DNA of 64,000 nt from Escherichia coli (GTDB taxonomy: Bacteria > Pseudomonadota > Gammaproteobacteria > Enterobacterales > Enterobacteriaceae). Positions within the stretch are counted from its first letter, which is position 1. The number at the start of each line of letters is the position of its first letter. The stretch lies in NCBI RefSeq assembly GCF_965641715.1, contig NZ_OZ282453.1, one strand, 5' to 3'. Below are positions 4,575-4,841 of the stretch, piece by piece. The position numbers and the translations under genes are program-made. The notes under the pieces were generated by a model. That model was not told the DNA's origin and did not search any database. It saw only the letters and a program-made list of their open reading frames with translations.

Positions 4575-4578
<4 letters not shown>

Positions 4579-4841
4579 AAGAGTTTTTATTTTTATTTCA
4601 CTCCACGGTCGGCGTCATACAAACCCGCAAGGCGTTGCAGGCAGCGGGCATGACTTTTCGCGTCAGCGATATTCCCCGTGATTTACGCGGCGGCTGCGGG
4701 TTATGCATTTGGCTGACCTGTCCCCCCGGCGAGGAAATACAATGGGTGATCCCTGGGCAGACCGAAGCGATATATTGCCAGCAGGGCAGCGACTGGCAGT
4801 GCGTGGTGCATTACGATGCAGAAGCGTCAACCAGGCAATAA
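4575..4841 (+). CDS. small hypothetical protein, translationally coupled to yjiL (possibly DUF3343-like)
   Basis: 88-aa ORF whose ATG overlaps the yjiL stop (ATGA); family assignment is tentative recall. Confidence 0.45.

Follow-up and report, generated by a model that had tools for sequence, protein, structure and literature searches.

In a 64,000-nucleotide (nt) stretch of the Escherichia coli contig NZ_OZ282453.1 (hereafter the window), the genes yjiM, yjiL and ytiA form a compact unit on the plus strand, and the present analysis concerns its last member, ytiA, at positions 4575–4841. We lean slightly toward a reading, drawn from comparative sequence analysis, in which YtiA would carry sulfur or selenium on Cys41 as a persulfide or perselenide, and would serve the YjiM-YjiL pair as a pathway-specific accessory. 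YjiM is assigned by its sequence to the double-cubane-cluster reductases and YjiL to their ATP-dependent partners, and genes of the family to which YtiA belongs, DUF3343, stand beside double-cubane genes in distant bacteria as well, in part together with genes for selenium and sulfur mobilisation. The main value of the analysis lies in this link between DUF3343, the double-cubane system and selenium/sulfur (Se/S) metabolism. The open reading frame (ORF) itself adds nothing new, as it is annotated in K-12 and in RefSeq, and the family label "putative Se/S carrier" already exists.

YtiA belongs to a putative Se/S carrier family with one invariant cysteine

The original prediction described an unnamed ORF of 88 amino acids (aa) in a poorly characterised system, with an ATG overlapping the yjiL stop and a GGCGLC segment. 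These features were all confirmed in the sequence and the gene is real, but it is already known as ytiA (b4715), a member of the DUF3343 family. The coding sequence (4575–4841, +; 88 aa plus stop), which is supported by the ORF list, Pfam, RefSeq annotation and an AlphaFold2 (AF2) model, begins at ATG 4575–4577, and the sequence across its junction with the yjiL stop is cgccgATGAaag. The start codon and the yjiL TGA (4576–4578) share the 4-nt overlap ATGA (4575–4578, +). A GAGGA motif (4563–4567, +) within the 3′ end of yjiL, 7 nt 5′ of the ATG, would serve as the Shine-Dalgarno sequence. Translation of ytiA is probably coupled to that of yjiL, and the ATGA overlap is the likely site of this coupling.

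The protein matched Pfam PF11823 (Se_S_carrier, formerly DUF3343) with 49.2 bits against a cutoff of 25 (E = 3.6e-13), YtiA residues 4–59 aligning with positions 2–57 of the 69 in the profile; no NCBIfam model matched the ORF. Its counterpart in K-12 MG1655 is YP_009518833.1 (85 aa), and that in the closest strain, D8, is WP_000657677.1 (88 aa), named "DUF3343 domain-containing protein" by RefSeq. The 88-aa window allele is 100% identical in DNA to that of strain TB06052. A literature search on E. coli ytiA/b4715 found no paper, those using the name "ytiA" being concerned with a Bacillus subtilis paralogue of ribosomal protein L31.

YtiA residues 39–44 read GGCGLC and contain Cys41 and Cys44; the other cysteines are at positions 49, 68 and 76. 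In an alignment of 25 enterobacterial homologues, the segment DIPRxLxxGCGL, including Cys41, was invariant, and the tail was variable after about residue 65. The corresponding core motif in the window is DIPRDLRGGCGLC (residues 32–44; 4668–4706, +), with the Cys41 codon at 4695–4697. In a family alignment of 16 diverse members (A4), the only invariant columns were Phe8 and Cys41, and the position of Cys44 was occupied outside the Enterobacteriaceae by Ser or Ala (CG[LI][SA]). Of the two cysteines in GGCGLC to which attention had been drawn, Cys41 is a family feature and Cys44 an enterobacterial one. Single-cysteine chemistry is favoured over a CxxC-type redox or metal site, since only Cys41 is invariant in the family.

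These observations accord with Lin 2015 (PMC5322559), in which the DUF3343 family was described as having one highly conserved Cys and was proposed to be a Se/S trafficking chaperone; no selenium-specific DUF3343 subfamily was found there. YtiA shares with the PF11823 family an above-threshold profile score, a length of 80–100 aa and the single conserved Cys. It differs in its surroundings: the E. coli locus has no adjacent selenocysteine lyase, YedF or SelD gene, and the only conserved partners of E. coli ytiA are YjiM and YjiL. The function of the PF11823 family is itself a prediction.

YjiM and YjiL form a double-cubane-type system

The neighbours yjiM (2650–3801, +) and yjiL (3811–4578, +), separated by 9 nt, were correctly named from the sequence, as confirmed by Pfam, NCBIfam and RefSeq; their description as a "radical-type dehydratase-like" pair did not hold. 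YjiM scored 531 bits against NCBIfam NF040772, "double-cubane-cluster-containing anaerobic reductase" (cutoff 350), and has a Pfam HGD-D match. Its cysteines 40, 59, 78, 108, 273, 304 and 335 align with the conserved Cys columns of 44 diverse homologues, and its best match among solved structures was PDB 6ENO, the double-cubane protein of Carboxydothermus hydrogenoformans (E = 5.6e-75). A literal seven-Cys regular expression taken from published work failed on YjiM owing to its slightly shorter spacings. YjiL, the ATP-dependent reductase ("activase" or archerase) of the pair, is annotated by RefSeq and matched Pfam BcrAD_BadFG (E = 9e-77) and TIGR00241 (364 bits). An NF040772 score above the cutoff, the seven cysteines and an adjacent BcrAD_BadFG-type ATPase place YjiM by sequence in the double-cubane-cluster reductase family rather than among the radical dehydratases, and YjiL as its ATP-dependent reductase. 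This agrees with Jeoung et al. (PMC7317905), in which YjiM was listed as a probable class II double-cubane-cluster protein (DCCP) and YjiL as its ATP-dependent partner.

The DCCP and DCCP reductase (DCCP-R) of C. hydrogenoformans (PDB 6ENO; Jeoung & Dobbek) are homologues of YjiM and YjiL (PMC7317905). They are described as a two-component system with no small third protein, whereas the E. coli unit has YtiA. YjiM also lacks the N-terminal extension of 6ENO, the alignment beginning at 6ENO residue 62. The physiological substrate and role of the double-cubane protein are not established (PMC9351452), and the near-exclusive occurrence of DCCPs in SelD-containing genomes is unexplained (bioRxiv 10.1101/2022.07.06.499078).

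DUF3343 is linked to double-cubane genes beyond the Enterobacteriaceae

A YjiM-family alignment was run against one genome per species, and 80 loci were kept (numbered with the prefix L below). These loci were scanned with an iterated DUF3343 hidden Markov model (HMM), and matches were confirmed with Pfam. DUF3343 directly follows the activase gene in all six enterobacterial loci of the scan, and a small third protein of this kind is also encoded with the pair in L004–L009 and L092. Among the 74 non-enterobacterial DCCP loci, 12 carry DUF3343 within 8 kb, usually adjacent, a count that may be a slight underestimate because the first iterated HMM overlooked two Dehalococcoidia genes, which were found through small ORFs beside the DCCP gene and confirmed with Pfam. 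In 14 of the 18 DUF3343-bearing loci, DUF3343 lies no more than 153 nt from the DCCP or activase gene. DUF3343 occurred more often near those DCCPs that resemble YjiM most closely (8/18 versus 4/56; Fisher p = 8e-4). By a rough estimate, 12 genes per 1.0 Mb of flanking DNA is about an order of magnitude above the expectation for a small family present in a few copies per genome.

The gene order varies, being DCCP-activase-DUF3343 in Halanaerobium, DCCP-DUF3343-activase in Dehalococcoidia, DCCP-DCCP-DUF3343-activase in Clostridium, Hathewaya and Dorea, and DUF3343-DCCP in L064. The linkage between DUF3343 and the double-cubane system extends beyond inherited synteny. No fusion of DUF3343 to a double-cubane or activase protein was found in 10 long YjiM homologues, which instead showed activase fusions, tandem HGD-D domains and a PucR fusion.

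Some of these loci have features of their own. Two DCCPs, one short (about 382 aa) and one long (420–450 aa), occur together in L042 (3592–6623), L055 (7992–10576), L083 (5012–9152) and L087 (7971–10689), divergently in L083 and in tandem in the other three, and DUF3343 follows the long copy. All seven conserved cysteines are kept in the long copies; in the alignment used, the short ones retain no fewer than six, where the sixth may reflect an alignment shift at a CxC. In two Dehalococcoidia metagenome-assembled genomes (L056 and L061), the DCCP-DUF3343-activase genes are preceded by an ABC-type NMT1/THI5-like binding protein and permease and followed by an ArsP_1 permease; these transporter flanks hint at an imported substrate.

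Selenium and sulfur genes accompany DUF3343 at distant loci

Genes of the class-V aminotransferase family (Pfam Aminotran_5), to which cysteine desulfurases and selenocysteine lyases belong, were found at or near DUF3343 in L063, L068, L081, L083 and L089, that is, in 5 of the 12 non-enterobacterial loci with both DUF3343 and DCCP. YedF-like genes, encoding TusA and DsrE fusions, were found in 3 of the 12 (L064, L081 and L089). In L081, DCCP, activase, YedF-like, DUF3343 and Aminotran_5 genes form a same-strand run; SelD-like and YqeC genes are present as well in L089; and a Halanaerobium contig (L093) carries DCCP-activase-DUF3343-rhodanese and, further on, YedF-like-GrdA/GrdB. Such a Se/S neighbourhood is present in L063, L064, L068, L081, L083, L089, L090 and L093 and absent from the E. 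coli window, and is a tendency of the PF11823 family, not a requirement. Published surveys point the same way. Of the genes that overlap selD, duf3343 ranks in the top five (bioRxiv 10.1101/2022.04.13.486033). In Slackia, STRING links DUF3343 to selenocysteine lyase, YedF, a "CoA-substrate-specific enzyme activase" and HGD subunits (PMC5322559). DCCP, its reductase and selenocysteine lyase occur in selenium-linked methyltransferase clusters (PMC10418091).

We also noticed URO-D-family and B12-binding (corrinoid methyltransferase-type) genes beside the double-cubane, activase and DUF3343 genes in L055 (11884–12945), L063 (6147–7893) and L064 (9776–10894). They fit the "type I mlp gene clusters" proposed for methyl-selenium and methyl-sulfur compounds (PMC10418091). 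At DCCP loci without DUF3343, a NifU_N gene stands directly upstream in Tissierella (L021, 7428–7814; L052, 7439–7825; E = 1.6e-41), and an IscA/HesB-like ORF with 23.8 bits, under the Pfam cutoff, lies directly upstream of the DCCP gene in Desulfatitalea (L010, 6275–6682).

Proposed role of YtiA

The reading that we favour, with slightly better than even confidence, is that Cys41 of YtiA would transiently hold sulfur or selenium as a persulfide or perselenide. The donor of this atom would be an enzyme of the cysteine desulfurase or selenocysteine lyase type, encoded elsewhere in E. coli, and YtiA would hand the atom to, or take it from, the ATP-driven, low-potential system of YjiM, with its double-cubane [8Fe-9S] cluster, and YjiL. 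We infer every chemical step of this mechanism. YtiA would be an optional accessory rather than a structural or obligate subunit, because DCCP and its reductase work alone in vitro and most DCCP loci lack DUF3343. The original prediction of an "accessory or carrier subunit" is therefore reasonable as to a carrier, given the Se/S carrier family, the invariant Cys and the co-clustering at distant loci, and not as to a subunit.

Several observations weigh against this reading. No DUF3343 gene was found within 8 kb in 62 of the 74 non-enterobacterial DCCP loci. Acetylene turnover in vitro requires only DCCP and its reductase (PMC7317905), and YtiA is therefore dispensable for electron transfer. 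No gene for sulfur or selenium mobilisation is present at the E. coli locus, as judged from the window ORFs and RefSeq annotation, the genes there being mdtM, yjiN, yjiM, yjiL, a pentapeptide-repeat gene, yjiK and yjiJ in addition to ytiA. In L090, where no DCCP gene is near, DUF3343 lies in the order SelD-YedF-Aminotran_5-DUF3343-xanthine permease/dehydrogenase-YqeC; since DUF3343 occurs there without DCCP, its primary partner may be the desulfurase or lyase rather than YjiM-YjiL. The two upstream genes, yjiL and yjiM, are under tighter selection than ytiA, of which disrupted alleles are known. The predicted fold of YtiA is a generic ferredoxin-like one, with no specific structural match to known sulfur carriers, and our literature search found no experiment on YtiA or any DUF3343 protein.

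A related explanation is that YtiA is a helper in cofactor maturation and, instead of acting in the catalytic pathway, would supply the sulfur or selenium from which the [8Fe-9S] cluster of YjiM or the bridging [4Fe-4S] cluster of YjiL is built or repaired. The same invariant Cys and desulfurase neighbours also fit this idea, other DCCP loci have small genes of the Fe-S assembly type upstream (NifU_N in L021 and L052, IscA-like in L010), and a selenium-bridged cluster has been raised as a possibility by Haft. However, DUF3343 is missing from most DCCP loci, the C. hydrogenoformans DCCP is active with its reductase partner alone according to the cited reviews, and DUF3343 also occurs in clusters for selenium cofactors and xanthine dehydrogenase that have no DCCP. 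We consider a maturation role rather unlikely.

A more speculative reading, for which we would claim only a small probability, is that YjiM, YjiL and YtiA make up a three-part, ATP-driven module for mobilising chalcogens. In one version, Cys41 would present a persulfide, a perselenide or bound Se(0), from which the double-cubane reductase would release sulfide or selenide at very low potential, and the product could feed SelD, for example. In another version, YtiA would provide the bridging sulfur or selenium atom of the double-cubane cofactor. If true, such a module would provide three orphan families together with a physiological role, and would explain why double-cubane proteins occur almost always in SelD-containing genomes. 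At distant loci, DUF3343 stands with the double-cubane/activase genes on one side and genes of the desulfurase, YedF-like, SelD-like or rhodanese kind on the other, and E. coli encodes the double-cubane protein, its reductase and DUF3343 as a compact and genetically tractable yjiM-yjiL-ytiA unit. Owing to this arrangement and this compact unit, the hypothesis that a chalcogen is passed to or from an ATP-driven reductase of low potential is testable in E. coli.

Conservation, selection and disrupted alleles of ytiA

A search with YtiA gave 133 homologues at E ≤ 1e-3, with 56–98% identity across genera, among them Escherichia, Citrobacter, Klebsiella, Raoultella, Kosakonia, Phytobacter and Atlantibacter. 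The trio of HGD-D (383 aa), activase (about 255 aa) and DUF3343 (78–95 aa) genes recurs in about ten enterobacterial genera. It is kept in K. pneumoniae, in Kosakonia and, despite wholly different flanks, in Atlantibacter hermannii, and was also found in Superficieibacter, Hafnia, Cedecea, E. albertii, Citrobacter youngae and one enterobacterial metagenome contig. The stop/start overlap is kept across these genera as ATGA, GTGA or TAATG (in Hafnia it is 11 nt by ORF calls), and a purine-rich motif stands at the same upstream place in the ytiA orthologues. The suggested check, conservation of the ORF downstream of yjiL homologues, has thus come out in its favour. An ORF lost or interrupted in close relatives would have spoken against the prediction; this is not the case, because the trio, the overlap and the purine motif are all kept across enterobacterial genera.

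Selection was assessed by the Nei-Gojobori method against nine orthologues. The ratio of nonsynonymous to synonymous rates (dN/dS) was 0.12–0.35 for ytiA, 0.06–0.12 for yjiL and 0.04–0.06 for yjiM. Within the ytiA core (codons 1–62), the proportion of nonsynonymous differences (pN) was well below that of synonymous differences (pS), and the tail was much looser. The sequence comparisons indicate that ytiA is under purifying selection and, with the PF11823 match and the 133 homologues, that the ORF is a genuine protein-coding gene, the last of the yjiM-yjiL-ytiA unit.

The higher dN/dS of ytiA and its variable C-terminal tail could also be read as signs that the gene is a decaying or dispensable remnant with no current function in E. 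coli. Disrupted alleles fit such decay. A nonsense allele of 56 aa is present on 31 contigs, ytiA is annotated as frameshifted in the K-12 derivative PG20180050, and in E. coli STEC306 (L094, 3220–6220) a Mu-like prophage with helix-turn-helix genes and a Mu transposase interrupts ytiA after about codon 15. Five variant proteins in the databases (P0075, P0084, P0091, P0095 and P0096) shift frame at a homopolymer of six C residues (C6; 4722–4727, +). Many frameshift variants may be sequencing errors, since they are single metagenome-assembly sequences at the C6 run, and others, such as that of PG20180050, may be real frameshifts. On the other side, ytiA DNA was found by megablast in 5385 of 5426 complete E. 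coli genomes (99%), RefSeq annotates the ORF in each of the 40 rows sampled, under the name "ytiA: DUF3343 domain-containing protein" or "putative Se/S carrier protein", conservation of the core over about ten genera is strong, and the start/stop overlap is conserved as well. Interrupted alleles are, by these sequence records, a small minority, and we regard decay as improbable.

Predicted fold of YtiA and comparison with other small proteins

An AF2 model of YtiA built from the 25-sequence alignment was confident, with a predicted local distance difference test (pLDDT) score of 88.3. The model has the topology β1-α1-β2-loop-β3-α2-β4-β5, with Cys41 in the conserved β2-β3 loop, and predicts a small protein of about 80–90 aa with a ferredoxin-like fold.

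A redox role was considered, in which YtiA would act as a thiol-disulfide or metal-binding protein through CGLC and might, for example, donate electrons to YjiL. The Enterobacteriaceae keep C41-G-L-C44 almost invariably, and in a PDB profile search the enterobacterial profile (A1) gave one match, of the ferredoxin type, that aligned the motif with CxxC segments. This match was not significant (E = 0.14), and the family profile (A4) gave none. The CxxC is not a family feature, because its second position is Ser or Ala outside the Enterobacteriaceae, and a lone Cys is unable to ligate a cluster. Since the second Cys is enterobacterial only, a redox or metal function through CxxC was rejected for the family, and such a role for YtiA itself seems quite improbable. 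Least probable of all is a small PII/ACT-like regulator that would bind YjiL or YjiM and tune ATP-driven electron transfer. A comparison with PII (GlnB/GlnK) gave only weak Foldseek matches (E ≥ 0.016, template modelling score about 0.5, root-mean-square deviation 4.5–9 Å) and no Pfam P-II match.

A functional parallel to a YtiA acting as a carrier may be found in TusA and YedF (SirA-like), small single-Cys proteins that are thought to relay sulfur or selenium from desulfurases. YtiA resembles them in size and in its single family-conserved Cys, and YedF-like genes are found in the neighbourhood of DUF3343 in L064, L081, L089, L090 and L093. In TusA, which has a two-layer α/β fold, the Cys belongs to a CPxP motif where helix 1 begins, whereas that of YtiA is placed in the loop joining strands 2 and 3. 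A TusA-like identity was rejected, as YtiA has no match to Pfam TusA (PF01206) and TusA was absent from its structural matches. By analogy, YtiA may work like the TusA/YedF carriers, though it is not a member of the TusA family.

A putative recombination junction in ytiA and the adjoining insertion

The window ytiA is identical in DNA to that of K-12 up to about position 4758 (residues 1–61 are identical) and diverges abruptly beyond it, pS being 0.02 in codons 1–62 and 0.76 in the tail. The variable C-terminal tail and the allele breakpoint relative to K-12 occupy 4759–4841 (+). This identity followed by abrupt divergence suggests that the sharp boundary at about 4759 is a recombination junction within ytiA, which would accompany a low-GC insertion downstream. 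The window allele occurs in about 12% of complete E. coli genomes, and accompanies the low-GC insertion with a pentapeptide-repeat gene.

This pentapeptide-repeat gene (5154–7406, +; 750 aa) lies between ytiA and yjiK in a stretch of 30–37% GC (about 4800–7400). K-12 lacks the gene, and only about 640 of the 5426 complete E. coli genomes cover the stretch. Its product shows sub-threshold similarity to the PipB/PipB2 type III effectors and has a C-terminal run of NSTDKQ-like repeats; the copy of strain D8 is 40 aa shorter.
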